DNA of 62,068 bases, from the NCBI GenBank assembly GCA_029260935.1, contig JAJDCJ010000015.1, forward strand, positions 1-62,068. The letters are read 5' to 3'. The translations under genes were made by a program, and so were the position numbers. This document shows, piece after piece, positions 1 to 37,327 of this stretch. The stretch's first letter is position 1. Each line of letters opens with the position of its first letter. Below the pieces are notes generated by a model, which was not told where the DNA came from, ran no database searches, and saw only the letters and a program-made list of their open reading frames with translations. The DNA comes from Patescibacteria group bacterium. GTDB taxonomy: Bacteria; Patescibacteriota; Minisyncoccia; Phycocordibacterales; Phycocordibacteraceae.

Positions 1-117
1 CGCTCAGCCCGCTCGAGTACTCGCGGGTCCTCGCCCACCTGCCTGCCTCTTTTCTTTATTTTTTAACATCATCCCCCCGAAAACCGTTCTCTGAAGTGGA
101 AGCAGGCAGAGTGGGGC
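1..117. repeat. Left arm of long perfect inverted repeat IR-A (partner 3075-3191); outer end cut by window edge
   Basis: Bases 1-117 are the exact reverse complement of 3075-3191 (117/117 by eye). The match stops at 118/3074 on the inner side and runs off the window on the outer side. Contains the palindrome CGAGTACTCG (14-23) and the 9-mers CATCCCCCC (70-78) and AAAACCGTT (80-88), which are also present in IR-B. Confidence 0.9.
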
Positions 118-199
118 TCGGAAAAACAACGCCTCATATACCAGGCAATTGAGGTGTTTGGTGCCTAGAGTGCATGAACTCCACCGCTCGGCCATTCGG

Positions 200-221
200 C
201 CTCGGGCATTTCCGCTAGGGC
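200..221 (+). repeat. 22-nt motif CCTCGGGCATTTCCGCTAGGGC, forward copy
   Basis: A perfect inverted partner lies at 477-498. A 2-mismatch copy lies inside the recombinase CDS at 5244-5265. Confidence 0.85.
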
Positions 222-306
222 TACTCGCACCTAGTTTTCTAGGAGCACCGCTACTCCTCGCCAGTGTCGCCTGCGGGCTCCCTGTCTTCGGGCGGCACAC
301 TTTTTT

Positions 307-331
307 GGGGGAAGGACGGCATCCTTCCCCC
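307..331. other. Strong GC hairpin (10-bp perfect stem GGGGGAAGGA / TCCTTCCCCC, 5-nt loop)
   Basis: Read directly from the sequence. Lies in the GC-rich noncoding block 118-613. Confidence 0.8.
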
Positions 332-476
332 AGCGCCTCCTCGGCTCGGCAGGGCTCGCCCAACCGTCGGCGCCAACCCCCAACCTCGTTTTCATATCCA
401 TTCGCTCGTAATGTCGCTTCCGCTTCTAAAATCAGTATTTCAAAACAACAACGGCGCTCATCCATGCACACTGGCC

Positions 477-498
477 GCCCTAGCGGAAATGCCCGAGG
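477..498 (-). repeat. 22-nt motif CCTCGGGCATTTCCGCTAGGGC, reverse copy
   Basis: Exact reverse complement of 200-221. With its flanks (about 45 nt) it resembles recombinase codons RSSGISARASVYG at 5240-5278. Confidence 0.85.
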
Positions 499-540
499 AC
501 CGGAACTGCAAAACTACAGAAAACACCACTCACTGTTCAT

Positions 541-569
541 GTGCTTGCCCCACCCACCGTGCGCGCACT
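541..569 (+). repeat. 29/30-nt direct repeat GTGCTTGCCCCACCC(A/TC)CCGTGCGCGCACT, copy 1
   Basis: Near-identical copy at 3363-3392 (1 substitution plus a 1-nt indel). Confidence 0.8.
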
Positions 570-613
570 ACTCCCACACCAATGAAAGTGGAAAAGTTGG
601 TGTGTGGCTCCCG

Positions 614-763
614 TTAGATTTTCTTTTTCAACTTATCAAAATACACGTCGAGTGACAGTTCTGCCATTTTATATAAATCGCTTCTAAGTTCCTCAACTTG
701 TTCGTCTGTCATATCTAGAGAGTCTTTACCAAGATGTTGACGGCACTGTTGGATAGAGAGCAT
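614..763 (-). CDS. Hypothetical small protein, 49 aa (MLSIQQCRQHLGKDSLDMTDEQVEELRSDLYKMAELSLDVYFDKLKKKI)
   Basis: Hand-translated ATG..TAA ORF below the 60-aa cutoff. Its composition is helical and protein-like, unlike the GC-rich block next to it. No homolog recognised. Confidence 0.35.
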   Translation of the reverse strand: MLSIQQCRQHLGKDSLDMTDEQVEELRSDLYKMAELSLDVYFDKLKKKI

Positions 764-791
764 AAATTAATGTTATCACTCGGTACCATAA

Positions 792-1043
792 CTAGACAGT
801 CGAGTCTGACTTGTCTTTCTTTAAAATTGACTTAAAGAAAATGTTTACCAAAAGATAGGGTAAGCCAAAGTAAAGAATAAGAGCAATAAAAAATTCGATT
901 GCCGCTCGTAAAAGATCACTACTAAAAGCATCAAAAACGGCGTATAAGAAAAGAAAAACACCAGTCCATTTGAAAGATTTCAAAAGCCACGCTAAGTATT
1001 CAAACTTTTTTCCTTCTTTATTTGCCATGTAAAAAGTATACAC
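792..1043 (-). CDS. Small membrane protein (2 predicted TM helices)
   Basis: ORF track; hydrophobic stretches GVFLFLYAVFDAF and FFIALILYFGLPYLLVNIFF. Alternative ATG at 1028. Confidence 0.5.
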   Translation of the reverse strand: MYTFYMANKEGKKFEYLAWLLKSFKWTGVFLFLYAVFDAFSSDLLRAAIEFFIALILYFGLPYLLVNIFFKSILKKDKSDSTV

Positions 1044-1054
1044 TAGCTTTACTT

Positions 1055-1330
1055 TTAGTTTCCAGGACTATTCCAAGAATCATGTGGAATACCAATACCA
1101 TCTGAACCAAAAAGAAATTCATTGAAAGGTCCTGCCCATTGCCAATTAAATAGCCCGCTTATAATCGTCCAGACCATAAGAGCTATAAATACAACCAAAA
1201 AAATCTTATCCCACTTGCTTGAGGTGGTCCACCACCTTTTTATACTCTTCTTTATGCTCCTGAATACAGTCGATTCATCTTCAGGCACACCAAGAGTTTT
1301 ATTTTTTGGAGGTATAAATAATGATTTCAT
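1055..1330 (-). CDS. Small membrane protein (1 TM)
   Basis: ORF track 1055..1357. The internal ATG at 1330 (MKSLFIPP...) avoids overlap with the upstream gene, whose stop is at 1332. TM segment: IFLVVFIALMVWTIISGLF. Confidence 0.5.
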   Translation of the reverse strand: MKSLFIPPKNKTLGVPEDESTVFRSIKKSIKRWWTTSSKWDKIFLVVFIALMVWTIISGLFNWQWAGPFNEFLFGSDGIGIPHDSWNSPGN

Positions 1331-1331
1331 G

Positions 1332-1628
1332 TTATTTTTTGTATAAGTAAAAGCCAATAATTGCCGCTGCTACGACATCTAAAATTTGCCAAGTTTCTCG
1401 TGCGAAATAGAATGGGAATAGTGGATTGAAGAGTATTGCCGTAATTCCAAATATCCACGTCCAAGTGAATTTCTTACTCTCATAGCTTGTATACGCTATG
1501 TAAATAGCTACAGCAGTGACTACCCATCTTAATAGTTGAAAATAGAAATAGGTCCAATCTCCGAAAGCTCCTAAAAGAAAAACGATCGCAAGAATTAAAT
1601 ACCAATTTTGTTTAAGAAAGTTTTTCAT
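1332..1628 (-). CDS. Small polytopic membrane protein (3-4 TM); resembles a widespread uncharacterised small-TM family
   Basis: ORF track. The C-terminal pattern FNPLFPFYFARETWQILDVVAAAI recalls a conserved FNP..P...R..W...D motif family. This is from memory and unverified. Confidence 0.55.
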   Translation of the reverse strand: MKNFLKQNWYLILAIVFLLGAFGDWTYFYFQLLRWVVTAVAIYIAYTSYESKKFTWTWIFGITAILFNPLFPFYFARETWQILDVVAAAIIGFYLYKK

Positions 1629-1843
1629 ATACCACTTCTATGTAAGCGTGCTTGATAATTCTCAAAATCGTTCTCACTGAATGGTTTTGATAGACTTGAC
1701 AATCCTTTTCCTTTCGAGTTCAAGTATCGATCAGAGCAGTCGCTCTTAATATTTGATGGTCTGACTTGAAACCAGTAAAAGGAAAATCCTAATATTATTA
1801 GTATTATAAAAATAATATATTTGTATTGTTTTAATTTCTCCAT
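1625..1843 (-). CDS. Small membrane-anchored protein (N-terminal TM)
   Basis: ORF track; YIIFIILIILGFSFYWF. Overlaps the downstream gene by 4 nt, which suggests an operon. Confidence 0.45.
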   Translation of the reverse strand: MEKLKQYKYIIFIILIILGFSFYWFQVRPSNIKSDCSDRYLNSKGKGLSSLSKPFSENDFENYQARLHRSGI

Positions 1844-1892
1844 ATTTTCAGCATATCATTTATGGTTCCATTGAGTGTGGTATACATAAAGT

Positions 1893-2096
1893 ATGGGCTT
1901 TATTATCATAGGAGTAATTGGAATCGTTCTATCAGCAATATTGACGCAGCACTTTGTAAAAAAGAACGGACTACCCACTGAAATGACAGAACAACTTCCT
2001 GGAACAGGGGTTATTCCTAAGTGGGTGTCATTAATAAATCTAGCTGGTTGGGCTTTAATTGTTTGGGGTGTTATTAGTTTTTTTATTGGTAGTTAA
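1893..2096 (+). CDS. Small membrane protein (2 TM)
   Basis: ORF track; two hydrophobic helices. Confidence 0.5.
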   Translation: MGFIIIGVIGIVLSAILTQHFVKKNGLPTEMTEQLPGTGVIPKWVSLINLAGWALIVWGVISFFIGS

Positions 2097-2294
2097 TCTA
2101 TTATATCAAAACCCCGTCTCAATTAAATAACGAACAATTCCAATATTTATAACGCACTAAAAGAACAGAAGAAGTATTTAGAAAAAATAGAAACCAAACT
2201 TATTTATTTTTGGTTCAGGAGATATTCTACGTCACGATTCTTGGCAAAGCCCATGAAACTAACAGTACACTTCTAATTCTTGTATACTTACTTC

Positions 2295-2495
2295 ATGACC
2301 CAATCAGAATATATTGCAGCTACGGTTTCTTATTTCCTCCCCTTTTTAATAGCCCCGATAATTGTCGGGGCTATATTCTCGTTAGTAGCTTGGTTACTCA
2401 CAAAAAAACGTTCAACTAAGAAATCTATCATTTGGTTTGTAGTAGGGTTTCTACTAGCAGCCTTTGTCATCTTTTATGGGTTAAGTCTAAAATAG
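2295..2495 (+). CDS. Small membrane protein (2 TM)
   Basis: ORF track 2280..2495. First ATG at 2295, preceded by TATACT (2283-2288). The overlapping 2210..2419 frame looks less protein-like. Confidence 0.5.
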   Translation: MTQSEYIAATVSYFLPFLIAPIIVGAIFSLVAWLLTKKRSTKKSIIWFVVGFLLAAFVIFYGLSLK

Positions 2496-2513
2496 AACTT
2501 CATATAATTTAAA

Positions 2514-2729
2514 CTAAAACGACCCTTTAATCCAACCAATAAAAGCAGCTAGTAGGAGTACAATAATTAAGAATAGCCCGCCCTTCCACGTATGCAGCCT
2601 TCTGTTTTCTTTGTATAGATAAATAAAATCACGTTTTTCGTTTTGAGATTGTACTGCATCTTCCCAACGATCCTCCGCGTCCAATTGTTCGCTTTCTTCC
2701 TGAATTGCTTTCCAGTCAATTTTACCCAT
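2514..2729 (-). CDS. Small C-terminally anchored membrane protein
   Basis: ORF track. Acidic N-terminal half followed by the TM segment GGLFLIIVLLLAAFIGWI. Confidence 0.45.
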   Translation of the reverse strand: MGKIDWKAIQEESEQLDAEDRWEDAVQSQNEKRDFIYLYKENRRLHTWKGGLFLIIVLLLAAFIGWIKGSF

Positions 2730-3031
2730 TAAGACTACTTATACCAGAACATCCAACTCCTGTATACTCAATCCAATATCTATACGGAAGGCTGAAAGTT
2801 CGGAAAGCCACACTTCGGGGTCACAAATTTTCTTAGGGCTTAGTTAAGCCGCTTGTATAAAAATACCCTACTAACACATTAAAAAAGCGCGTATCTTTTA
2901 CAAGCTTATTGAATCTATTTTTAAGATTTTTTCCTTTTTCGTTTGTTACAAATGTTAAATCAGTTGTCATATTATTTCAAAAGCTTGTCTATTCAAATAA
3001 TCGCATAAAAACAGCTAAAAAGCACTATCAA

Positions 3032-3059
3032 AAACGGCTCAACTTGGGTTGAGCCGTTT
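3032..3059. terminator. Perfect 12-bp hairpin AAACGGCTCAAC-TTGG-GTTGAGCCGTTT
   Basis: Read directly from the sequence. A/T-flanked and symmetric. Shares the stem core AAACGGCTCA/TGAGCCGTTT with the hairpin at 7962-7991. Confidence 0.45.
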
Positions 3060-3074
3060 AGGGAACAAAAACCC

Positions 3075-3191
3075 GCCCCACTCTGCCTGCTTCCACTTCA
3101 GAGAACGGTTTTCGGGGGGATGATGTTAAAAAATAAAGAAAAGAGGCAGGCAGGTGGGCGAGGACCCGCGAGTACTCGAGCGGGCTGAGCG
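3075..3191. repeat. Right arm of IR-A
   Basis: Exact reverse complement of 1-117. Confidence 0.9.
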
Positions 3192-3257
3192 CCGAGTCCG
3201 CGAGGCGCGATTAGCGCGGGTTCTGTTGGAAATAGGTTCGAGCTAGGGCGTAAAGAC

Positions 3258-3350
3258 GAGCCCAAAGTAGGTTTGATTCAGAATTTCCAGAATTTTTTCT
3301 GATGGCGCGAAGCGCTTCATAGGGGGGATGAGCGGAACCAGAAACGGTTT
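3258..3350. repeat. Left arm of perfect 93-bp inverted repeat IR-B
   Basis: Exact reverse complement of 5577-5669 (93/93 by eye). Mismatches flank it immediately at 3257/5670 and 3351/5576. Confidence 0.9.
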
Positions 3351-3362
3351 AGAGAACTAGCA

Positions 3363-3392
3363 GTGCTTGCCCCACCCTCCCGTGCGCGCACT
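3363..3392 (+). repeat. Direct repeat copy 2 of 541-569
   Basis: See 541-569. Sits 12 bp inside the IR-B left arm. Confidence 0.8.
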
Positions 3393-3432
3393 GAAAACTT
3401 TCGCCGAGTATTGGTGCTCGTCGAATGACTCC

Positions 3433-4155
3433 CTATTTTAATCCGTACTGAGTTTTTATTTTCTCCATTCTTTCTTTTTCATGTTCCTGAAGGGCTCTTA
3501 TAACACGATCCACCGCAAAGGCAGGTTCTTTGTCATAGTTTGAATACATGGTAGATGCAAAATCTAGTTTTAAAATAAATAAATCAATTGTGTCCTGAAT
3601 GATTTTTAATAATGTTCTAATTTGTAATCCAGTAATTTTCACCTCTCCTTTTTTTAAATCATCATGGGCCAAAAATTTATCTCTGTATATTTTTAGATTT
3701 TTGATTACTTTTTGATTATTTTTTAAACGACGTCGAATCTTTTTGAGATCTTCAAGCGTAAGTTCCTTATAGCCACTCATAAGTTCGGGAATAAAATCTC
3801 GTCCCTGTTGATATTTAAAGAATTCCTTTTCTGAAAAAGAACTTAAGTTTTCTTGAGCAAAGTCTAAAAGCAAACCTATAGTTAAAGATTGTTTTCGGTT
3901 ACCTTCATCAAAAAACTTAGCTATTTCTATAAAAAAATAAACTCTGGCGGCCTCTTGAATTGATGTAAAAAAGTAAAGATGTTGTCCATATGTTTTCACA
4001 TTGGCTTCTGCTTTTCTTTTCCCAACTACATTAGGCGCAGCTATTTTCCTTAGCTGTTCATATATCCTAAAAGCTGCAAGAGTATGCAGATAGCGGGTTT
4101 GCAAGCTCTTTGTCCAATCAAATACTTCCTTAAAATTGTGCTGATGAGAATGCAT
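3433..4155 (-). CDS. HEPN-domain, abortive-infection-like protein (AbiU2-like guess)
   Basis: 240-aa all-helical ORF with the R-x5-H motif RDKFLAH, which fits the HEPN Rx4-6H signature. Divergent from the recombinase. Family assignment was not searched. Confidence 0.5.
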   Translation of the reverse strand: MHSHQHNFKEVFDWTKSLQTRYLHTLAAFRIYEQLRKIAAPNVVGKRKAEANVKTYGQHLYFFTSIQEAARVYFFIEIAKFFDEGNRKQSLTIGLLLDFAQENLSSFSEKEFFKYQQGRDFIPELMSGYKELTLEDLKKIRRRLKNNQKVIKNLKIYRDKFLAHDDLKKGEVKITGLQIRTLLKIIQDTIDLFILKLDFASTMYSNYDKEPAFAVDRVIRALQEHEKERMEKIKTQYGLK

Positions 4156-4171
4156 GGAAGTGAACGTATCG

Positions 4172-4177
4172 TATAAT
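4172..4177 (+). promoter_or_regulatory. TATAAT -10 box 6 nt upstream of the recombinase ATG 4184
   Basis: Exact consensus hexamer. The spacing implies a leaderless or near-leaderless transcript. Confidence 0.35.
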
Positions 4178-4183
4178 ACTATT

Positions 4184-5725
4184 ATGCGCTTTTTTCTTTA
4201 CGTCCGCAAAAGTACTGATAAGGAGGATATGCAAGTTTTGTCTATTGAAGCACAGCTTGTAGAACTGCGAGCATTGGCGAGAAAAGAGGGGATTGAGATT
4301 TCTCAAGAGTTTGTAGAAAAACAGTCCGCTAAACAACCGGGCCGTCCTATATTTAATGAAATGATGGCGCGAATACAAAAAGGCGAAGCACAGGGCATTG
4401 TGTGTTGGAAAATTGATCGCTTGGCACGTAACCCCGTCGACGGGGGACAAATACAGTGGCTTTTGCAAAGTGGCATTATTGCCCACATACAGACACATGA
4501 CCGTGCATACTACCCAACAGACAACGTGCTCATGATGTCTGTTGAGTTTGGTATGGCGAATCAGTTTATTCGAGACCTTTCTGTAAATACAGCACGCGGA
4601 CTCCGTGCCAAAGCACGACAAGGACACTTTCCCGGAACGGCACCAGTGGGATATATAAATAATCCGCGCACCAAGACAATTGCTGTTGATAGAAAGAAGT
4701 CGCCAATCATTCGTGAAGCGTTTGCACTCTACGCGCAAGGCAATTCGCGTTTTGAAGATATCGGACAGTTTCTGTTTTCAAATGGAATTAAAAGTTTATA
4801 TGGAAATCGTATACAGAAAGACCGAGTGAAATTTATCTTAAGCAATACGTTTTATTACGGCCCTTTCCAATACGGTGGGGAATGGTACGAAGGAAAACAT
4901 ACTCCAATCATTGATAGAGTCTTATTTGAAAAAGTACAAAAAGTCTTAGTAAGACGTGGACGTCGACAGTCGACAAAAAAAGAACCGCAAGCGTTGTGCG
5001 GATTACTGAAGTGTGGGGAGTGTGGCATGAGTATAACTGCCGAAGCAAAAACAAAAACACAGAAGAACGGAAACGTGCATCAGTATGTGTATTACCGATG
5101 TACTAAGAAAGGGAAGGTCTGTTCACAACCGTTTATACGAGAAGAAGAATTAACGGCTCAGTTGAAACGAGCCGTTTCTGACTTCGCCTTGCCGAAAGAG
5201 TGGGCAGAAGAAATGTTCACATTATCAGAGAAGGACGAACGGTCCTCAGGAATTTCCGCTAGGGCGTCCGTGTATGGCGCACGTGAGAAACTGGTAGAAG
5301 CTGATACAAAATTATCACGCCTTACTGACCTCTATGTTGACCAAGATATTGAGCGCGACGCTTATCTATCGAAGCGTCGCGCTTTAGTGGATGAAAAGAG
5401 GAAACTAAATGAGCAGATTGCTCGTTTAGAGGCCGATGCACATAGTTGGCTCGAACCTCTTCGTGAGTGGATACAGGAGGCTTCAATCCTAGAGGGAATA
5501 GCAAAAAGCACTACCGTAGAGACACAAAAGGTCACCGTGCAAAATATCTTCGGCTCGAACCTGTTTTTAAAGAACAAAACCGTTTCTGGTTCCGCTCATC
5601 CCCCCTATGAAGCGCTTCGCGCCATCAGAAAAAATTCTGGAAATTCTGAATCAAACCTACTTTGGGCTCCGCGGGTAGGACTCGAACCTACAACCAACTC
5701 CTTACACGTTATCCCTTATTACTAA
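4184..5725 (+). CDS. Large serine recombinase
   Basis: N-terminus FFLYVRKSTDKEDMQVLSIEAQ (catalytic Ser context) and CWKIDRLARN (resolvase domain). Recombinase domain, Zn ribbon CGLLKCGECG...YYRCTKK, then a long coiled coil. The track start at 4154 is also possible. The last ~50 codons run through IR-B and antisense into the tRNA. Confidence 0.85.
   Translation: MRFFLYVRKSTDKEDMQVLSIEAQLVELRALARKEGIEISQEFVEKQSAKQPGRPIFNEMMARIQKGEAQGIVCWKIDRLARNPVDGGQIQWLLQSGIIAHIQTHDRAYYPTDNVLMMSVEFGMANQFIRDLSVNTARGLRAKARQGHFPGTAPVGYINNPRTKTIAVDRKKSPIIREAFALYAQGNSRFEDIGQFLFSNGIKSLYGNRIQKDRVKFILSNTFYYGPFQYGGEWYEGKHTPIIDRVLFEKVQKVLVRRGRRQSTKKEPQALCGLLKCGECGMSITAEAKTKTQKNGNVHQYVYYRCTKKGKVCSQPFIREEELTAQLKRAVSDFALPKEWAEEMFTLSEKDERSSGISARASVYGAREKLVEADTKLSRLTDLYVDQDIERDAYLSKRRALVDEKRKLNEQIARLEADAHSWLEPLREWIQEASILEGIAKSTTVETQKVTVQNIFGSNLFLKNKTVSGSAHPPYEALRAIRKNSGNSESNLLWAPRVGLEPTTNSLHVIPYY
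5577..5669. repeat. Right arm of IR-B
   Basis: Exact reverse complement of 3258-3350. Contains the palindrome GAAGCGCTTC (5609-5618), AAAACCGTT (5576-5584) and CATCCCCCC (5597-5605). Confidence 0.9.
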
Positions 5726-5961
5726 GAGCGTGGACTATATCATCATCCGGTCTGGATGCGAGGCGCTTCCCCCATAAAAATGGAGTACTCCCTTTCGGGA
5801 TAGTCTCTGAACCTTTCCCGACATTTTGTTAGGACTTGGCTGCTGATTACCCTCGGCATGACCCGTTCGGGTTTCCAGCAATTCACCTCGTTTTTCAATC
5901 TGAATTCCTTCAGAAAGCTGCCTTTTGACAGGGAGCTGCTCTACCATTGAGCTACCGCGGA
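5667..5961 (-). tRNA. Intron-containing tRNA; exons 5961-5928 and 5704-5667; spliced anticodon most likely GUU (Asn)
   Basis: Minus-strand read: acceptor UCCGCGG / CCGCGGA (7 bp), D arm GCUC-AAUGGUA-GAGC, anticodon stem GCUCC/GGAGU, T arm GUAGG-UUCGAGU-CCUAC, discriminator G, no encoded CCA. The two halves are 223 nt apart. A 5' exon ending in U35 and an intron ending in G give the loop CU-GUU-AA. U1-A72 plus G73 fit bacterial tRNA-Asn. Confidence 0.8.
5705..5927 (-). ncRNA. Group I intron (IC3-like, 223 nt, no ORF) in the tRNA anticodon loop
   Basis: Contains the catalytic-core strings GUUCAGAGACUA and GAUAUAGUCC (P7/P7' as in the Tetrahymena and cyanobacterial tRNA-Leu introns). GNRA-capped hairpins CUGAA-GGAA-UUCAG and UCCC-GAAA-GGGA. 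Possible P1 CUGU/GCAG with U.G at the 5' splice site, and a terminal G before the 3' exon. Confidence 0.75.
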
Positions 5962-5992
5962 ATATATTGTTCTGAAAGAACATCTTCGCGGT

Positions 5993-6173
5993 GCTCAAGA
6001 ATTGAGCTACTACCGGAGTGACTGAGGATCACAGGAAAGCAGTTCTTTCATATGATCGAAGTCACGAACGGGAGCAAGGATGGTTTTTCTTAAAACCAGA
6101 CTTACCGCGGAATGTATTCTGGATAGAGAATTATTCCTTCCGCGAGAGCTCAAGTTTGTGCACCGCGGAATGT
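5993..6173 (-). repeat. Degenerate partial copies of the tRNA 5' end (ACCGCGGAAT-type) upstream of the tRNA
   Basis: ACCGCGGAATRT occurs at 5954-5965 (the true 5' end), 6104-6115 and 6162-6173. ATTGAGCTAC-TACCGGA at 6001-6017 mimics ATTGAGCTACCGCGGA. GCTCAAG occurs at 5993 and 6147. Confidence 0.6.
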
Positions 6174-6328
6174 GTCTATTCTACTTAAAAAAACCACCCC
6201 TGCCAAGTGTCCAAGTGATGATATAATGGAGTATAAGGAAGTGCGCGTATGGATTCGTGGCGCAGATCATATCTATGTGTTCCTGTAGTTCCTGTTATAC
6301 ATGACCACTTCAATACAAATGTTTTAGT

Positions 6329-6823
6329 ATGAGTACCTCTGTCTTTACCCTCGCCAGCGATGTCTTTAATGACGGGGGCACTATTCCCACTGAATATACC
6401 TGTGACGGGGAGGGAATACACCCGCCTTTGAGTATCTCGGGAGTACCGACTGGCACAAAAAGCATGGTGTTATTAGTGGATGATCCGGACATACCAAAAG
6501 ACCTTAAAAAGAAGCGTGGTATTGAATGTTTTGATCACTGGGTGGTGTACAACATTCCAAAAGATACAACTGAAATTGAAGAAGGGGAGTCAGTCGGGAA
6601 AGAAGGTTTGAACTCAGGCGGTACGCGTGGGTACGTTGGTCCATGTCCACCGCCTGAATATGAACCAACAGCACACCGGTATTTCTTTCGGCTCTATGCT
6701 CTCTCCAAACAAATGCGTTTTGCAAAACCGCCAACACGCACGGAAGTGCTCACTGCTTTGGAATCGTGTGTTTTAGCAGAGACCCAACTTATGGGTATCT
6801 ATGACCGCAGTGGTCATAGATAA
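6329..6823 (+). CDS. YbhB/YbcL-family PEBP (Raf kinase inhibitor-like) protein
   Basis: Motifs GGTIPTEYTCDGEG, LVDDPD, HWVVYNIP, GPCPP, HRYFFRLYAL. Confidence 0.85.
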   Translation: MSTSVFTLASDVFNDGGTIPTEYTCDGEGIHPPLSISGVPTGTKSMVLLVDDPDIPKDLKKKRGIECFDHWVVYNIPKDTTEIEEGESVGKEGLNSGGTRGYVGPCPPPEYEPTAHRYFFRLYALSKQMRFAKPPTRTEVLTALESCVLAETQLMGIYDRSGHR

Positions 6824-6871: not shown

Positions 6872-7108
6872 ATGTTTACATTATACGTTGAGACCGGCTG
6901 CCCTTATTGCGCCAAAGTATTACAAACCATTGATGAGTTGGGAATCTCAGTTGAGCAGAAAAATATTGCTGACTCTGGTGTTTCAGAAGAGCTTATTGCC
7001 CGAGGAGGGAAGCGTATGGTTCCTTATTTAGTAGATTCTGATCGCGATACTGAAATGTATGAGTCAGATGATATTGTCGCCTACCTCAAAGAGCACCACA
7101 GCGCGTAA
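6872..7108 (+). CDS. Glutaredoxin-like small redox protein
   Basis: CPYC active site at the N-terminus of a ~78-aa thioredoxin-fold-sized ORF. The track start GTG 6854 is an alternative. Confidence 0.7.
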   Translation: MFTLYVETGCPYCAKVLQTIDELGISVEQKNIADSGVSEELIARGGKRMVPYLVDSDRDTEMYESDDIVAYLKEHHSA

Positions 7109-7113
7109 CTACT

Positions 7114-7344
7114 ATGTATGTTCGGGTAGATGTGACGGCAGCGGCAAAGCGCGAGCGCTTTGCCGCTGTTTCTATAGACGCCTTCACTGTCTCAGTAAAA
7201 GAGCCGGCAGAGCGCAACATGGCAAACAAACGCGTTGTACAGTTGGTAGCCGAACATTTTAATCTACCACCAAGGGCAGTGCGGATTATCAGTGGACACC
7301 ACTCGCCCCGTAAAATTCTCTCAGTTACCCAAGCAAAAGGGTAA
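7114..7344 (+). CDS. DUF167/YggU-family protein
   Basis: 76 aa. Pattern V.V...AKR....V..D.F.V.V.EP.E...AN..V..L.A..F.....V.I.SGH.S..K typical of YggU. Confidence 0.65.
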   Translation: MYVRVDVTAAAKRERFAAVSIDAFTVSVKEPAERNMANKRVVQLVAEHFNLPPRAVRIISGHHSPRKILSVTQAKG

Positions 7345-7358
7345 GATATACTACATAT

Positions 7359-7724
7359 ATGGAAATAAAAACAAAAGTCACCGGTTCAGTGGTTATGAGT
7401 GATGAACTGGCAGTATATATAACTAATAAACTTGAAAAAATCACCATCTTTCTAAAAAAAGACCCTACTGCTATTTTTGAAGTTGAAGTAGGAACGACCG
7501 CAGGCGGTCAGCGCACCGGTGATGTGTATCGCGCGGAAATCCACGCAACGTTCGCCGGCGGTGATGTATATGCAGAGTCAACGGCAGCAAACCTCCACCT
7601 TGCAATTGACCGCACAATAAAAGAAGCACGCCGTGAGTTTAAAAAAAGACGCGGCAAAAACAATGATGCGATGCGAAAAGGAGCAATACAGGTGAAAGAC
7701 TTCTTCCGCAATTTTGGGAAATAA
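7359..7724 (+). CDS. hpf: Ribosome hibernation promoting factor / RaiA family (short form)
   Basis: 121 aa. IT..L..Y...KL.K....YRAEI...F.GG.VYAES....L..AID....K..R.. pattern. Confidence 0.75.
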   Translation: MEIKTKVTGSVVMSDELAVYITNKLEKITIFLKKDPTAIFEVEVGTTAGGQRTGDVYRAEIHATFAGGDVYAESTAANLHLAIDRTIKEARREFKKRRGKNNDAMRKGAIQVKDFFRNFGK

Positions 7725-7734
7725 AGGACGCTCC

Positions 7735-7798
7735 GGGCGATGATAGTTTCAGAACCCTGCCTGCCCTCCTGCGCGAGTTTCTGAAACTGTCATCGCCC
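7735..7798. other. Long imperfect hairpin (20-bp arms, 1 mismatch, 24-nt GC-rich loop)
   Basis: GGGCGATGATAGTTTCAGAA ... TTCTGAAACTGTCATCGCCC, read directly from the sequence. Part of a ~300-nt ORF-free spacer. Confidence 0.6.
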
Positions 7799-7961
7799 TT
7801 CCACTAAGGTGTAGAAACTCCGTGTTCTGCGGCCGCCAAAATCATCACTACCCTACGTTAGAGTTGGAGGAATTGTGTGCTTGGCTAGGCTGTCTAACTA
7901 CCCAAACAGGCCTAGCAAAACAGTGATTTTGTAGACTGAGCGATACTTGCTTCGCTAAGAT

Positions 7962-8997: not shown

Positions 8998-9564
8998 TTA
9001 GTCATAATCTATAAAAGTGCCGTCAGGGAGCGTTTTTTTAAGGTCTGTTGCATGGTCTATAAAGAGAACACCATTCAAATGGTCTACTTCATGTTGAAAA
9101 ATTTCTGCTAACAATTCACTACCACCACGTTGAAACTTTTTCCCGCTCGCGTCATGCGCCACCACGGTGACTTTCTCAGCACGCTCAATCGTGCCATACA
9201 CATTAGGGACCGACAGACACCCCTCTCCCGTAACAGATATTTTTTTTCGTGACGAGTTTACTATTTTTGGATTTATAAAAACTACATCAGGGTCATCATC
9301 ATTGCGCTCATTACCGGCGACCACAAAACCACGCACCGTAAAAATCCGATACGACACACCTATTTGGGGAGCGGCGATTGCAACACCAAATTCTGCACTT
9401 CTCAGTGATGCCTCCATAGCAGAAAGAATACCAGTGAGTTCTTTAGTGCCAAACAGTTCCTTTGGTACCTCAGGTGCCACCACTCTTAAAACTGGTGCAC
9501 CCGCAGTTACAATAGGGGTTGGATGTGTATCTTTCATATGAGGTAAATGTACTACATCTGGCAC
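8998..9564 (-). CDS. def: Peptide deformylase
   Basis: Motifs GVAIAAPQIG, EGCLSVP, HEVDHLNG. ATG at 9537 is an alternative start. Confidence 0.9.
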   Translation of the reverse strand: MPDVVHLPHMKDTHPTPIVTAGAPVLRVVAPEVPKELFGTKELTGILSAMEASLRSAEFGVAIAAPQIGVSYRIFTVRGFVVAGNERNDDDPDVVFINPKIVNSSRKKISVTGEGCLSVPNVYGTIERAEKVTVVAHDASGKKFQRGGSELLAEIFQHEVDHLNGVLFIDHATDLKKTLPDGTFIDYD

Positions 9565-9577
9565 GTATTTTAAATGG

Positions 9578-9600
9578 ATGTAGCTGTCCGACAGCTACAT
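9578..9600. repeat. REP-like 23-nt palindrome ATGTAGCTGTCCGACAGCTACAT
   Basis: Perfect palindrome around central C/G. One of six copies in the window. Confidence 0.9.
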
Positions 9601-9614
9601 TTTTTCCATCCCCT

Positions 9615-9744: not shown

Positions 9745-9776
9745 ATGTAGCTGATGTAGCTGTCGGACAGCTACAT
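9745..9776. repeat. REP-like palindrome (9754-9776) preceded by a 9-nt partial duplication ATGTAGCTG
   Basis: ATGTAGCTG-ATGTAGCTGTCGGACAGCTACAT. Confidence 0.9.
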
Positions 9777-9821
9777 TTTTTCTACATTTTTCCAGCTTTC
9801 AGTTCTCCAAAAACTAGGACA

Positions 9822-9856: not shown

Positions 9857-11767
9857 CTATACAATCTCGTCGGGATCAACTGAAACGTGTACTTCAGGTG
9901 GAAGTGATAAAAGCTCACCGCGGAGTGTGTGGTGAGGCCACTTTCCTGACTCAAGGCGAATAACGGCGCGTGCGATGTATCGGTTTTTTCCAATATATCG
10001 TGGTGGCAGGGGCCCAATAATTTCCCAATCTTTAAGGACGTCACGAACGATTTCGTTTGTTTTTTCAATAGCCCTTTCGGTGCCAGTCCAGGTCAGTCCA
10101 ATAAATGTAGTAAATGGTGGATAGCCAAACTGCTCACGTTCTTTTAATTCTTCTCGTATAAAGTCAGTCGGATTACCTGAGGCAAGAGCACGCATGACAG
10201 AACTGTCGGCGTTGCGCGTTTGAACGAAGAGTGGCCCTTGGGTGTGGTCGCGTAAGTAGAAAAGTGTAGTGAGTGCGTACTCATGCGCACGCCACGCCGA
10301 AATTGAAAGAAGTGAGTCAATTGAGGCGACTACTGAAAGGTCAACCGGTTCGGTCAGATACGGAAGTGCCCGCTCTGTCCCTATCAACAGTGCACCTGAT
10401 ATTTCAAAAAATTGTTTCTGTATTTTTTTCGCCTTGCTGTGTGTTGACGCATTGTCAGCCGTGATTGAAAATACCTGATACTTTTTAAATAATTTTTGCG
10501 CCTCATCAATCACTCTCTCAACACCAATACCTAAACTCACCAAATTCCAACTAGTACACTGTTTGCATGAAATATTCGCAGGCACTACCGCACCCGAGCG
10601 GTATGACATAAATACGTTCCCTTTTTCAGTTTTATGTAATGTCATTGGAGTATCACTACTAGGATCGGTAATAGGAGTGCCACAGTCATTACATACAGTC
10701 AGCGGCGCCAGTCCTTTACGTTGTGCAAAGACAAACACACGCCCACCACGTTCTAACTCTTTTCGTATAGCGTGTTCTGCCTGCTCAGTAAATACACTAA
10801 ACGGTCTCTTTTTTTTTGGTATTTGGTTTTCGGTCTCTTTTTTTCGCGCGTCAATAATACTCACGGGGGTTCTGTTTTGTGCTGAAACTTGCATACGCAT
10901 GAGCTCCTCAAGTTCGCCCCTTTGGAGTCTGTTGCGTGTGGTGACGCGCAGAGGGAAGTCAGCATAAATAATTCGTGCTCCTTGTTTTTTGGCTATATAT
11001 TCTGCCGTTATGCGCGCATCAATGGCATTCTGTTCAAACCCTCTATAGGTGCGGGCACTTTCTCTTTCAATAATATATGCACCGACGTTAGATCGTGGAA
11101 TCGCTAAGAAAGAAGGGGTAGTAACAATAAGGAGTGGTTCAGGGTCAGTCGTTGCGCGATTCCAAATAGAGAGTATTGCCTTTTTTGTTATTGAGGAAGT
11201 AATTAACACAACTTGTTCTTCAATACCGCGATGCAGTTTTTCATATAAGTTTTCAGCTTCAATACTAGTGGGTGCAATAAGGATAATTGATGTACCACGA
11301 GCAAATGCTTCGCGTGCAATGTTGCGATACATACGCACACGTTCTTCTGATTCAGCTTGAAGTACCAGTGCATCCGATGTGGTTTCAACTCTTTCTTCTG
11401 TAACGGGGGCGTTATTAATTTTATCCAAAGAGTCAGTAATAACGCTCGGTGTGAAGTGCGCAAGCAGTGCGCCAATAGGGAGTGCGTGGTAGATGGCACT
11501 ATCGCGTAATCCCTCAAGTATGGCGGAGGGAAGAACGCGCTTACTCGTTCGTGATGTTATTTTTTTAAGCGCGAAAGAGCTTTCGCGAAGTTCTTGCCGT
11601 TCCGTGCGCACATCAGTGATTGATACCACCACGGCAGGAGTTGCCTTACCGCGAACCGGCACCGTAACGACAGAGCCCACTTCAAACTTTGTTTTTGAAA
11701 AAAAGGATAGTGTTCCTTTTAAACCCCTTTTGCTCATTGGAGTAACTTGGACAACAAACATATGCAC
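9857..11767 (-). CDS. priA: Primosomal protein N' (replication restart helicase)
   Basis: 636 aa; N-terminal 3'-DNA-binding-like region, helicase core, Cys-rich Zn insertion (CNDCGTPI...CKQCTSW). Confidence 0.85.
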   Translation of the reverse strand: MHMFVVQVTPMSKRGLKGTLSFFSKTKFEVGSVVTVPVRGKATPAVVVSITDVRTERQELRESSFALKKITSRTSKRVLPSAILEGLRDSAIYHALPIGALLAHFTPSVITDSLDKINNAPVTEERVETTSDALVLQAESEERVRMYRNIAREAFARGTSIILIAPTSIEAENLYEKLHRGIEEQVVLITSSITKKAILSIWNRATTDPEPLLIVTTPSFLAIPRSNVGAYIIERESARTYRGFEQNAIDARITAEYIAKKQGARIIYADFPLRVTTRNRLQRGELEELMRMQVSAQNRTPVSIIDARKKETENQIPKKKRPFSVFTEQAEHAIRKELERGGRVFVFAQRKGLAPLTVCNDCGTPITDPSSDTPMTLHKTEKGNVFMSYRSGAVVPANISCKQCTSWNLVSLGIGVERVIDEAQKLFKKYQVFSITADNASTHSKAKKIQKQFFEISGALLIGTERALPYLTEPVDLSVVASIDSLLSISAWRAHEYALTTLFYLRDHTQGPLFVQTRNADSSVMRALASGNPTDFIREELKEREQFGYPPFTTFIGLTWTGTERAIEKTNEIVRDVLKDWEIIGPLPPRYIGKNRYIARAVIRLESGKWPHHTLRGELLSLPPEVHVSVDPDEIV

Positions 11768-11845
11768 AGTTTATATGTTTTATTGGATAGGGTACACCCC
11801 CCGCTATTATGCCAAAGCTAGGGTCGGGGGTATAATTGAGAAATT

Positions 11846-13126
11846 ATGAATATGTTTGTAGTTGATGGGCTCTCAGGAAAAGCATCACTTTCAGGTGAGG
11901 TTTCAATTGAAGGAGCAAAAAACGCAGCGCTTCCTATTATGGCAGCGGCGCTGGTTGTGTCAGGCGAAACAGTCCTTACGAATGTTCCTGACATAGCAGA
12001 TGTTGCTTCAATGAGCACTCTTCTTGAAGGGGTGGGTGCATATGTTACCTGCAAAGACGGTCAGTGTTCAATTAGAACGCAGGATGTCAATCGTTCAGTA
12101 CTGGACCCCACCATAGCAAAATTATTACGCGCCAGTGTTTTACTTACCGGCTCAGTTCTTGCGCGAGTGGGGAAGGTGGTCTTTCCACATCCGGGTGGGT
12201 GTGTTCTCGGCTCTCGGCCCATTGATATTTTCTTAGAAGGTTTTGAAAAGTTAGGATGCACTATTTCAGAAAGGCACGATGCCTACACCATCACGGCAGA
12301 AAATGGTATTGAAGGTGGTGAAATTTTCTTCAAAACAATCTCAGTTACTGCAACTGAGACATTTATGATTGCATCAACAAAAGCAAAAGCTCCGGTCGTG
12401 CTTAAAAATTGTGCAATGGAGCCTGAAATTGTGGCAACCGCTGAATATCTAGAGGCATGTGGTGCACGCATAGAAGGCGCGGGCACATCCACTATCACCA
12501 TTCACCCCTCACATCTTGAAGCACCACCCGATCTAGTGCGTATTATTCCAGACCGTATTGAGGCGGGAAGTTTCCTTCTTCTCGGCGCACTTCTAGGAAA
12601 AAAAATAACATTACGCAACTGTGAGCCAAAACACCTTGAAGCAGTTACTGAAACACTTCGTTCAATGGGGGTTACCATTACCACCACCTTTAACACTATG
12701 TCAGTGTCTGCGCCAAGCACACTAACCGGTGTTTCTATTCGTACGCATGAATATCCTGGTTTCCCAACTGACTTACAGGCGCCGTTTGCAGTACTTCTTA
12801 CTCAGGCAAAAGGGGAAAGCTCAATACTAGAAACTGTTTTTGATGGGCGATTAAATTATCTGCAAGATCTTTCTAGTATGGGAGCTCACGCACAGGTATG
12901 GAATCCGCATAAAGCCACTATAAAAGGACCAACGCCACTCAAGGCCCGCGATATTGATGGACCTGATATTCGCGCAGGACTTGCGTTTCTGTTGGCAGCT
13001 GCTGTTGCTGAAGGAAAATCAAAAGTAGGTAACGCACACCTTATAGACCGCGGATATGAACGTATTGAAGATAAACTTGCATCTCTCGGACTTCCCATAC
13101 AGCGCATTACCCATACCCACGATTGA
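11846..13126 (+). CDS. murA: UDP-N-acetylglucosamine 1-carboxyvinyltransferase
   Basis: GAKNAALPIMAAAL, GGC.LGSRPID, typical 426-aa length. Confidence 0.9.
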   Translation: MNMFVVDGLSGKASLSGEVSIEGAKNAALPIMAAALVVSGETVLTNVPDIADVASMSTLLEGVGAYVTCKDGQCSIRTQDVNRSVLDPTIAKLLRASVLLTGSVLARVGKVVFPHPGGCVLGSRPIDIFLEGFEKLGCTISERHDAYTITAENGIEGGEIFFKTISVTATETFMIASTKAKAPVVLKNCAMEPEIVATAEYLEACGARIEGAGTSTITIHPSHLEAPPDLVRIIPDRIEAGSFLLLGALLGKKITLRNCEPKHLEAVTETLRSMGVTITTTFNTMSVSAPSTLTGVSIRTHEYPGFPTDLQAPFAVLLTQAKGESSILETVFDGRLNYLQDLSSMGAHAQVWNPHKATIKGPTPLKARDIDGPDIRAGLAFLLAAAVAEGKSKVGNAHLIDRGYERIEDKLASLGLPIQRITHTHD

Positions 13127-24779: not shown

Positions 24780-24802
24780 ATGTAGCCGTCCGACAGCTAC
24801 AT
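24780..24802. repeat. REP-like palindrome (1 mismatch) abutting the RAYT stop codon
   Basis: ATGTAGCCGTCCGACAGCTACAT. Confidence 0.85.
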
Positions 24803-24805
24803 ATT

Positions 24806-25486
24806 TTATTCAAGGGTGACGGACTCTTCAACATCAAAACCTTTTAATTCGCGTGCTATGGTTTTCTTATAATTTTGCTCGCCACCGAATATTTCAAGAA
24901 AGAACTTTCGGTTCGTGACCGAAGGAAAGTTTTGAAGACCAAGATAATCGCGATGGCTTGACCAACGGTATTGTTCAAGAAACTCTATAGCCTGCTTTGG
25001 TTTGGCGGGACACTGGCGTCGCCATTCTGGGGTATGCATATCAAGCGGGTTGAAGTGAATGTAAAAAGGGATGAAGTTAAAGTGTGCCTGCGTTGTTATA
25101 GGCACCGATTTATATCCCCCTTGCCACAACGCACCCACGCGATCGTTTTTATTATTGAAATACTGGGTGTAACCTGCATTCAACTTTTTCATAAAGAGCG
25201 GAATGCCATTTTCAACAATAGGGGAGAGTAAGAGGTGATAGTGGTTCGGCATCAGTGCAAAACAATGAATATGCACCAGAAGTTCACGTTTCCGTTTTCC
25301 CCTGTTTTTAAAATGTAGCTGTCGGACAGCTACATTTTTATTAAAACGAGTAGTCCCACGAGTTCCTACGGGAGCGGTGTCATTGAATTCATACATATCG
25401 TGGATAAAGCGCAGATAATCTTTCTCATTGAGGAAAACCTTTCGTTTATCAACTCCACGGTTTAGAATATGAAAAAAATCAAGCAT
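24806..25486 (-). CDS. REP-associated tyrosine transposase (RAYT; IS200/IS605-like Y1 HUH enzyme)
   Basis: FHILNRGVDKRKVF, HUH motif LMPNHYHLLL, later Tyr-containing helix region. Flanked on both sides by the REP palindrome. Confidence 0.8.
   Translation of the reverse strand: MLDFFHILNRGVDKRKVFLNEKDYLRFIHDMYEFNDTAPVGTRGTTRFNKNVAVRQLHFKNRGKRKRELLVHIHCFALMPNHYHLLLSPIVENGIPLFMKKLNAGYTQYFNNKNDRVGALWQGGYKSVPITTQAHFNFIPFYIHFNPLDMHTPEWRRQCPAKPKQAIEFLEQYRWSSHRDYLGLQNFPSVTNRKFFLEIFGGEQNYKKTIARELKGFDVEESVTLE
25313..25335. repeat. REP-like palindrome located in frame inside the RAYT ORF
   Basis: ATGTAGCTGTCGGACAGCTACAT encodes NVAVRQLH on the minus strand. Confidence 0.9.
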
Positions 25487-25495
25487 ATATGCAAT

Positions 25496-25518
25496 ATGTA
25501 GCTGTCCGACAGCTATAT
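25496..25518. repeat. REP-like palindrome (1 mismatch) 10 nt upstream of the RAYT start
   Basis: ATGTAGCTGTCCGACAGCTATAT. Confidence 0.85.
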
Positions 25519-25526
25519 ATTAGCAG

Positions 25527-25621
25527 GGGTGGGGGCTTGGGAGGTGGAGGTGGGTGTGGATAAGAGACTATAGGGTGGGATAAAGTGTCATATAATATAC
25601 CTCAGGTGGGAAAAAGTGGGA
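25527..25621 (+). promoter_or_regulatory. Putative Pmra region: G-rich GTGGR repeats, TATAAT (25591-25596) and three GTGGGA boxes (25575, 25606, 25616)
   Basis: The last two boxes are exactly 10 bp apart and the first is 31 bp upstream. This resembles the MraZ operator architecture of TGGGN direct repeats. Confidence 0.5.
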
Positions 25622-37146: not shown

Positions 37147-37327
37147 TAGGCTAAAAACGCAAACTGCTTTGCTTGCGGCGGGGAATCGAAGGGCGGAATG
37201 CCACACCTCGCGAGGTGTGGCATGAGTCGGGGTCGCGGAAATTTCCAAGTAGCGACGAGGAAATTGAAAATGTAGCTGTCCGACAGCTACATTTTCACAA
37301 ACCGCTTTGCGTTTTTAGCCTAGTGAC
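37142..37327. repeat. 22-bp inverted repeat (37142-37163 / 37306-37327) enclosing palindrome 37200-37221 and a REP copy
   Basis: GTCACTAGGCTAAAAACGCAAA and its exact complement; the inner GCCACACCTCG/CGAGGTGTGGC is a perfect palindrome. Confidence 0.8.
37270..37292. repeat. REP-like 23-nt palindrome
   Basis: ATGTAGCTGTCCGACAGCTACAT, perfect. Confidence 0.9.

Follow-up and report, generated by a model that had tools for sequence, protein, structure and literature searches.

What arrangement of mobile DNA places two perfect inverted repeats side by side, next to a single gene for a large serine recombinase (LSR) and against the end of a tRNA gene? The locus that raises this question occupies positions 1-5669 of a 62,068-nt stretch (contig JAJDCJ010000015.1, assembly GCA_029260935.1, from a Patescibacteria group bacterium), and this whole stretch will be called the window. 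We think it probable that window 1-5669 is an integrated mobile cargo island of the Patescibacteria, which was placed by its LSR at the 3′ end of the tRNA gene and whose modules can be flipped. The window was compared with a set of 151 relatives of the LSR in GTDB genomes, 80 of these loci being kept for self-comparison; individual loci are cited by L numbers.

Two abutting inverted-repeat pairs at a tRNA gene

The first pair, IR-A, consists of a left arm at 1-117 (the Y arm, cut by the start of the window, some 69 nt of its outer end being predicted to lie beyond) and a right arm, IR-A-R, whose perfect part inside the window is 3075-3191. The two are 100% reverse-complementary and stand 2957 nt apart, and a perfect inverted repeat of 117 nt makes an origin by chance impossible. 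The second pair, IR-B, starts 66 nt past 3191; self-comparison places its left arm (the X arm, a non-coding copy) at 3258-3350 and its right arm (X′) at 5577-5669, each 93 nt long at 100% identity. Neither repeat has a third copy within the 62 kb window, and a 30-mer of IR-A found no match in a metagenome scan. An earlier note, made from the letters of the window, had described IR-A as enclosing a GC-rich block followed by an AT-rich stretch of small open reading frames (ORFs), and it was right in all details, the GC content being 57.5% over 118-613 and 34.4% over 614-3074. The words and palindromes that it listed (CATCCCCCC, AAAACCGTT, CGAGTACTCG and GAAGCGCTTC) are each where it put them.

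From these words the note had suggested that IR-A and IR-B are related families, a view that we could not uphold. The shared 9-mers are marginal: 5% of shuffles yield at least one such word and 1.2% yield two or more. In addition, AAAACCGTT begins one base outside IR-B. The alignment of the two repeats falls within the shuffled range for the window and above it in one of six relatives, and homology of the families was rejected on this count (local alignment beats the shuffled controls in one of seven loci). Together they make up a single composite site at 3075-3350, IR-A being its left half and IR-B its right, and this site resembles an attachment (att) site.

The short segment between the pairs, 3192-3257, is homologous to the IR-A-R arm tips of L002, L029 and other loci, and is for this reason predicted to be the outer end of IR-A (Y′). 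By this comparison, the full IR-A of the window should span 3075-3260 (186 nt) and stop at a 3-nt core, GAG (3258-3260), which would be common to the IR-A end, the start of IR-B and nucleotides 71-73 of the tRNA (5669-5667). The note had allowed that IR-A may continue past the window and would in that case absorb the IR-B arm; the first part agrees with the predicted extra 69 nt, the second fails, because IR-A ends at the core in the relatives. Y′ of the window holds GGTTCGA (3235-3241), a mimic of the tRNA T-loop heptamer, 16 nt ahead of the core. A decayed, inverted tRNA 3′ half had been considered for 3060-3257; only GTTGG...TAGGTTCGAG matches, and this is now read as the conserved T-loop mimic of Y′. 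The IR-B of the window is a shortened version at 93 nt and lacks the inner part with a second GGTTCGAGCC word, which is present in the coding arm at ~5547-5556.

The LSR gene (4184-5725, plus strand, with an alternative start at 4154; 523 aa) encodes the Resolvase, Recombinase and Zn_ribbon_recom domains (PF00239, E 2e-22; PF07508, E 1e-12; PF13408, E 2e-10), in the order catalytic, recombinase and zinc ribbon that defines an LSR. Reading of the sequence places the expected serine in an N-terminal YVRKST motif, and phmmer finds distant matches to SPbeta SprA (residues 6-407) and to A118 integrase structures. No close relative exists in IMG/VR, and the integrases of GenBank phages reach at most 28% identity, so that a prophage reading was dropped. 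The 3′ codons of the gene traverse IR-B and then run antisense to the 3′ exon of the tRNA. The right IR-B arm thereby encodes recombinase residues ~465-495, which are the final ~31 codons of the conserved portion of the gene, while its opposite strand supplies a tRNA trailer with a hairpin and a T-run.

The tRNA gene, on the attB side, lies on the minus strand at 5667-5961 and is read as tRNA-Asn(GUU) with a 223-nt group I intron (Rfam RF00028, 81 bits). Its exons are 5961-5928 and 5704-5667, and the intron (5927-5705) sits in the anticodon loop. ARAGORN, with introns allowed, calls Thr(UGU), and an equally legal splice gives Asn(GUU), because a GU/UG repeat occurs at both junctions; the exon body is near-identical to the tRNA-Asn(GUU) genes of relatives. 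The T-loop GGTTCGA is found at 5688-5682, 12 nt ahead of the core as compared with 16 nt in Y′, and the right IR-B arm stops 3 nt inside the 3′ end of this minus-strand gene. The target tRNA of L004 likewise carries a group I intron (L004 6410-7082). Upstream of the window tRNA, its first ~10 nt with 5′ flank (ATTCCGCGGT) occur three times (~5965, 6113 and 6170, within 5963-6180 of the minus strand), and a piece resembling a D-arm (GTAGCTCAATTCTTGAGCA) lies at 5992-6010; these could be remnant tRNA 5′ ends or a repeated promoter-proximal element.

All LSR relatives come from Patescibacteria-type metagenome-assembled genomes (MAGs), the best being 70% identical. In about 50 of the 80 loci the 3′ end of the LSR gene bears one arm of an inverted repeat 80-244 nt in length, and nine loci have a second pair directly adjoining it (47-286 nt; 97-100% identity). 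A convergent tRNA gene abuts the LSR 3′ end in 53 of the 63 loci with flanking sequence, and 13 amino-acid identities are represented. Read in the tRNA sense, the right end of every locus follows the pattern GGTTCGAnnCC-(acceptor)-core-X, where X, the IR-B arm, opens with tRNA nucleotide 72/73 plus CC, after which come a hairpin and a T-run. The other copy of X is always preceded by the conserved Y′, which reads ...AAAATAGGTTCGA-N16/17 in the 37 loci listed. By regular-expression search the T-loop heptamer of Y′ stands 4 nt further from the boundary than that of the tRNA in 30 of 36 loci, the rest being in the same register. The type of core tracks the tRNA discriminator: AGC occurs with Gln and Asn; CAC with Arg, Val, Leu, Ile, Tyr and Ala. 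A transposon with terminal inverted repeats was rejected, as there is no duplication beyond the 3-5 nt core and every insertion falls at the 3′ end of a tRNA gene.

In L040, L063 and L014 the modules number more than two and their arms alternate. Copies of the composite site lie at 2245-2653, 5142-5549, 11487-11872 and 15056-15441 in L040, at 7548-7947 and 11140-11474 in L063, and at 6936-7188, 9289-9575 and 11385-11522 in L014; in some of the multi-compartment relatives a complete Y′-core-X is found on both sides of the recombinase-bearing module.

The left arm of IR-A begins exactly at position 1, and 117 is a MEGAHIT k-mer used in a related deposit (k117_...), which would fit a fold-back misassembly at a contig end, the very outcome that the earlier note had named as fatal to its reading. 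We regard such an artefact as scarcely credible. The two-pair layout, together with the GC-rich element described below, is present within long contigs and also in OY970175.1 and OY970354.1, two complete chromosomes from long reads (899 and 829 kb; chromosome-level MAGs), so it is not a product of short-read assembly. In complete relatives the arm homologous to IR-A is 158-286 nt long and ends at a core of 3-5 nt (GAGC, AGCC, AGC, CAC), which overlaps with both the tRNA end and the beginning of IR-B; beyond the left IR-A arm lies unique DNA. Assemblers, moreover, can be expected to break off k bases inside a true inverted repeat, and position 1 is probably such a contig end, produced by a true inverted repeat that exceeds the k-mer in length. 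In many independent assemblies the short-read contigs break off within IR-A or 100-140 nt beyond the left IR-B arm; such starts were seen in L007, L008, L012, L015, L018, L020, L025, L027, L030, L033, L035, L041, L046, L057 and L066.

A proposed island with an internal, inverted attachment site

In the arrangement that we propose, the LSR would insert the island at the 3′ end of a tRNA gene, this end serving as attB. The right end of the integrated island would then consist of the tRNA T-arm and acceptor, the 3-nt core and X, with X supplying the discriminator and CC end as well as the terminator-like trailer, and encoding on its opposite strand the C-terminus of the LSR. The left end would be Y (IR-A), whose outer tip would carry AAATAGGTTCGA with the T-loop mimic 4 bp further from the core. 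Set in direct orientation, the tRNA-core-X and Y′-core-flank ends would resemble the attL and attR of a serine-integrase element. Recombination of one end with the other may thus excise the island and join Y′-core-X, which would be its attP.

The segment 3075-3350 would be a second, complete copy of this attP, inverted, in the middle of the island. It would divide the island into module A, with the GC-rich structured element and the small membrane proteins, and module B, with an AbiU2-type gene and the LSR. Recombination of the internal site with either end would invert one module and regenerate identical junctions. IR-A would then consist of the island's left end and the left half of this internal site, and IR-B of the right half of the site and the right end of the island; an internal inverted attP copy thus accounts for two abutting inverted-repeat pairs. 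Four orientation states follow from such a site.

All four were found. Scored by the structured element relative to the LSR, 23 loci including the window are in the standard state, one has module B flipped, three have module A flipped, and five have both flipped; two further loci with module B flipped were judged by the side on which the tRNA lies. In L061 and L068 the tRNA is on the non-recombinase arm. In L188 and others an X′-core-Y junction follows the recombinase end, and in L105 the tRNA is at the recombinase end with the structured element beside the internal site. For L061, L068, L188 and L105 both the junctions and the position of the tRNA were confirmed. Loci L131 and L081, from different samples, are 95.7% identical over 1507 nt in opposite orientation, while the adjoining flank is collinear at 91%; this is a recent inversion of the recombinase-bearing segment, bounded by the arm. 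The suggestion in the note of two invertible or mobile modules, with one serine recombinase in the locus, is supported across the relatives: inverted repeats bracket each segment in the window, and both orientations occur among the relatives. In the favoured state the cargo genes of modules A and B, with few exceptions, share one direction with the structured element, here that of the minus strand.

The same arms could be divided differently, between two elements in tandem: an autonomous B (X...X′, with the LSR) and a satellite A (Y...Y′, with the structured RNA), each having a palindromic attP when circular. Each arm pair exactly encloses one module, a recombinase is never found in module A, arrays of more than two modules exist in L040, L063 and L014, and a core common to all junctions is predicted here too. 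We nevertheless hold this arrangement to be unlikely. Y′ lies outside the left IR-B arm in all 37 listed loci, L014 carries Y′ inside both arms, and no locus has a module B that lacks a Y′ neighbour. A palindromic attP should insert both ways, yet the LSR faces the tRNA in 53 cases against 3. Y′ also resembles a tRNA half-site, as would the arm of an attP that matches its attB.

The length and identity of the arms bring in homologous recombination. On this account the LSR would only integrate and excise the island, and flipping would be RecA-dependent recombination between the arms, with no regulated function. The arms measure 93-286 nt, far above the ~25 bp of LSR half-sites; they are 97-100% identical within a locus yet divergent between loci, which is a signature of gene conversion; and the strong bias of orientation fits rare events. 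The X arms of one locus match each other at 97-100% over ~110 nt, show an indel of ~10 nt at 111-120, and then fall to 75-91% identity up to ~160 nt; between loci they differ freely. The indel recurs, and sets the non-coding X arm apart from the coding one, in 37 loci. Such concerted evolution implies gene conversion and makes RecA flip-flop a live alternative or a contributor. It is nonetheless a possibility to which we give clearly less weight than an even chance, as arms for homology alone need neither a core nor a T-loop mimic, yet the internal Y′-core-X is intact in every locus, and an indel at 111-120 nt beside a perfect outer 110 nt suggests a constraint on the outer part. That the internal site keeps its full core and T-loop mimic in every repeat-bearing locus argues that the LSR uses it. 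In the reading that we prefer, flipping would be an action of the LSR at the core rather than of RecA within the arms, and the island would be excised by recombination of its two ends.

Several points weigh against an LSR-driven island with an internal attP. Its left junction is drawn from the relatives only, the left flank being outside the window, and the crossover point is not fixed by an empty tRNA target site. No recombination directionality factor is visible. LSRs are not known to recombine attL with attP, and flipping by such an enzyme would need unusual rules of synapsis, while the long identical arms would allow RecA-driven flipping in its place. The tRNA is at the LSR end in 53 loci and at the other arm in three, a bias which points either to infrequent flipping or to a preference for one of the states. 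The structured element, finally, is missing or undetected in the two-module relatives L021 and L076, and is therefore not essential to the layout.

Cargo and the structured element

Module B carries, beside the LSR, one cargo gene (3433-4155, minus strand) for a 240-aa AbiU2-type HEPN protein. The assignment follows from its match to the Pfam profile PF18734 (E 2.7e-14; 53.5 bits against a cut-off of 26.8; profile positions 6-185 of 193), which makes it a predicted AbiU2 family member; it has no match in PADLOC. Homologues are found at the equivalent position in L053 and L004.

The eight ORFs that the note had listed in module A (one of 49 aa and seven of 67-100 aa) were all recovered, and each of the seven has at least one hydrophobic segment of 19 residues. 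On the minus strand lie the 49-aa ORF (614-763; no hydrophobic segment and no family match), small membrane-protein ORFs of 83 aa (792-1043) and 100 aa (1055-1357) recognized by a scan for hydrophobic segments, a 98-aa DUF6804 membrane protein (1332-1628; Pfam PF20619, E 1.5e-24) and a further small membrane-protein ORF of 72 aa (1625-1843; same scan). Two plus-strand ORFs of 67 aa (1893-2096) and 71 aa (2280-2495) each have two hydrophobic segments, and a minus-strand ORF of 71 aa (2514-2729) has a C-terminal one. A ninth, of 45 aa (2833-2970, minus strand; …RFFNVLVGYFYTSG…), weakly resembles by tblastn (E 0.045 and 0.24, to L004 and L001) the N-terminus of a large cargo protein that stands beside IR-A-R in these two loci, and may be a remnant of an older cargo gene, possibly for defence, that was lost.

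DUF6804 is the sole family among the small membrane proteins in Pfam; PHROGs returned nothing meaningful and PADLOC nothing. The immunity, exclusion or holin-like roles which the note had proposed for them find no support in these three collections and are a guess. Module A of L045, L135 and L144 likewise contains homologues of the DUF6804 protein, with further membrane proteins or proteins of unknown kind as neighbours (tblastn and context). The compartments of relatives, A and B alike, carry mainly defence genes, namely type II and type III restriction-modification systems, GmrSD, OLD/AAA_15, AbiEii-like ATPases, SIR2, HerA, DUF4411 and deaminases.

The likeliest effect of flipping would be to move cargo operons into or out of line with the transcription of the neighbouring module. 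Another idea is a phase-variation switch of the shufflon kind, as in the note, in which a flip of module A would turn the small membrane-protein genes on or off relative to a promoter outside it. Read-through from module B could drive a co-oriented module A and a flip would break it, and module A is found in both orientations in nature. We judge such a switch quite improbable. No promoter was established, since a promoter consensus scan gave no more sites than shuffled sequence, and the flip exchanges no coding sequence; the structured element is distal in 24 loci and proximal in eight, which may equally be evolutionary drift. A TATAAT promoter at the tip of Y′ was considered: it is present in many relatives and absent from the window (TAAAGA), L002 and L021, and is not claimed. 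The likeness to shufflons drawn in the note does not extend to the strict sense of the term, as the recombinase is an LSR, the arms measure 93-286 nt and there are no alternative 3′ segments facing a fixed 5′ part; no coding end is swapped among alternatives, and whole operons flip.

The GC-rich block of module A contains a structured element at 180-608, a candidate non-coding RNA of ~430 nt assigned to the minus strand, with a long-range stem formed by 200-221 and 477-498. A terminator-like hairpin with a T-run (130-147, minus strand), for which a consensus scan provides weak evidence, lies at its distal end. The motif GTGCTTGCCCCACCC.CCGTGCGCGCACT, followed by a hairpin and CTCCC, occurs at 541-569 and is kept in relatives; a direct repeat of it (3363-3392) lies in an element of ~80 nt at 3351-3432, again with the hairpin and CTCCC, which is matched in many loci and stands 3′ of the minus-strand cargo gene. 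The final ~80 nt of the structured element (motif GTGCTTGCCCCACCC.CCGTGCGCGCAC, hairpin, CTCCC) thus recur after the left IR-B arm.

A profile search with nhmmer among L001-L200 detected 131 loci with the element, which lies immediately interior to the IR-A arm, and at least 120 further loci came from a metagenome scan with one conserved word of it. The exact window motif GCCCCACCCNCCGTGCGCGCAC is absent from the first 80 loci, and the homology surfaced only through the profile search. Fifty-one non-redundant copies support a consensus structure of 54 pairs, in which 95.9% of the cells are paired as compared with 40-45% when the partners are slid. Double-sided changes occur in 18 pairs (3-7 when slid) and compensated cells number 146 (5-15 when slid), and none of 500 shuffles reaches these values. 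For both strands the consensus folding energy lies far below that of alignments shuffled by column. The evidence leans towards the minus strand, which is probably the correct one: its consensus energy is -74 as compared with -55 kcal/mol, 41 of the 51 single sequences fold better on it (p = 5e-6), and it is G- and A-rich and co-oriented with the cargo genes. Counts of G-U and A-C pairs on a GU-free structure (7 vs 11) are uninformative as to strand.

Rfam gave no match at E ≤ 1 in window 1-6600 except the group I intron, and none to the structured element in nine relatives, where two chance-level hits fell elsewhere. The element is probably a new structured RNA. Two other origins of the GC-rich block were rejected. 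A decayed recombinase 3′ end or a copy of the tRNA or its intron does not fit, as only the 30 nt of 473-502 match the LSR gene and the order is not collinear; a coding sequence fails because its long ORFs are of low complexity and, by inspection, insertions of variable length break any frame. The stretch 473-502, part of the main stem, is complementary at 27 of 30 positions to 5240-5269 of the LSR gene (residues ~353-362) in the window only, and an exact-pattern search found no third copy of it in the recombinase genes of relatives.

Two features elsewhere in the window may be recorded here. Six palindromic units of the form ATGTAGCTGTC(C/G)GACAGCTACAT, usually followed by a T-run, lie at 9578-9614, 9754-9790, 24780-24816, 25313-25349, 25496-25532 and 37270-37306 and look like a dispersed hairpin or terminator family, similar to repetitive extragenic palindromes (REP-like), of the source genome. 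Two neighbouring genes have in common diverged repeats for a motif of the type ...CSDGIDNDGDG (33666-33820 with 36230-36402, and 33944-34093 with 36529-36678; families D2 and D3), a composition which suggests paralogous surface proteins with calcium-binding repeats.

Known systems and significance

The enzyme itself is that of the serine integrases (A118/LI, SPbeta SprA, Bxb1, phiC31), with which it shares the catalytic and recombinase domains and a zinc ribbon with coiled coil, as well as short att sites with a tiny common core in which the attP arm resembles the attB arm. In LI integrase the recognition motif lies ~4-5 bp further outward in attP than in attB; here the shift is +4. The present family differs from these integrases in targeting the 3′ ends of many tRNA genes, in possessing a second, inverted copy resembling attP, in its near-perfect arms of 93-286 nt, and in an LSR gene whose 3′ end doubles as an att arm. 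There are no phage genes and no visible directionality factor, unlike the situation with phage integrases.

In lifestyle the closest relatives by analogy would be the composite islands of the staphylococcal cassette chromosome (SCC/SCCmec, with CcrAB or CcrC), while the geometry of the flip recalls the 2-micron plasmid and the inversion of several segments recalls shufflons. SCC modules are delimited by short direct repeats, have inverted ends that are short and imperfect, and are excised instead of being inverted. Like the islands described here, they are cargo mobilized by an LSR at the 3′ end of a conserved housekeeping gene, and in composites recombinase-less modules stand in tandem beside a recombinase-bearing one. 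Defence systems are among the genes that one account attributes to SCC islands (PMC11470126), as here. The SCC target is rlmH and not a tRNA gene, and SCC elements have no conserved structured RNA.

The R64 shufflon (Rci), the invertases Gin, Cin, Pin and Hin, and the hsdS shufflons likewise consist of adjacent segments with inverted sites beside one recombinase gene, a likeness heightened by the relatives L040 and L063 with more than two modules. Those systems employ tyrosine recombinases or small serine invertases at sites of 19-26 bp, which are not att sites of an island, and their flips swap gene 3′ ends or a promoter. The yeast 2-micron plasmid (Flp/FRT) and plastid flip-flop also have identical long inverted repeats around two unique segments found in both orientations, a recombinase target embedded in each repeat, and arms that evolve in concert. 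Flp is a tyrosine recombinase whose flip serves amplification of replicon copy number; in contrast to the 2-micron plasmid, no replication gene is seen here and the unit is integrated in the chromosome. Islands with tyrosine integrases (P4-like elements and tycheposons) share the tRNA 3′-end location of the cargo and the restoration of the displaced tRNA end by the island. They carry direct repeats of the 3′ part of the tRNA, whereas here the enzyme is a serine recombinase, identity is confined to a core of 3-5 nt, and the tRNA mimic of Y′ is in inverted orientation.

A full-text literature search found no published description of this layout. The most far-reaching view would see an undescribed class: an LSR that recognizes the T-loop and so serves many tRNA genes, an attP that mimics them, an internal inverted attP that flips defence and accessory cargo into and out of a shared line of transcription, and an RNA of ~430 nt that controls the reaction, either as a substitute for a directionality factor or as an antisense regulator of the LSR. 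We offer this combination as speculation, with a low chance of being correct in full. An internal inverted attP with two flippable cargo bays poses the question whether one serine integrase can carry out both integration and inversion at a single set of sites. If true, recognition of the T-loop by an LSR whose core is set by the discriminator base would make it a natural multi-target integrase that follows simple and foreseeable rules, and hence attractive for genome engineering. With the GC-rich block comes a sizeable structured element that covaries well and has no Rfam family. The repeats also interrupt short-read assemblies at a point that can be predicted, and this accounts for many MAG contig ends. 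The Patescibacteria (candidate phyla radiation) have tiny genomes in which few mobile elements are recognized, and a family present in at least 200 retrieved loci with defence cargo would be a main route by which these bacteria gain and shuffle accessory genes.

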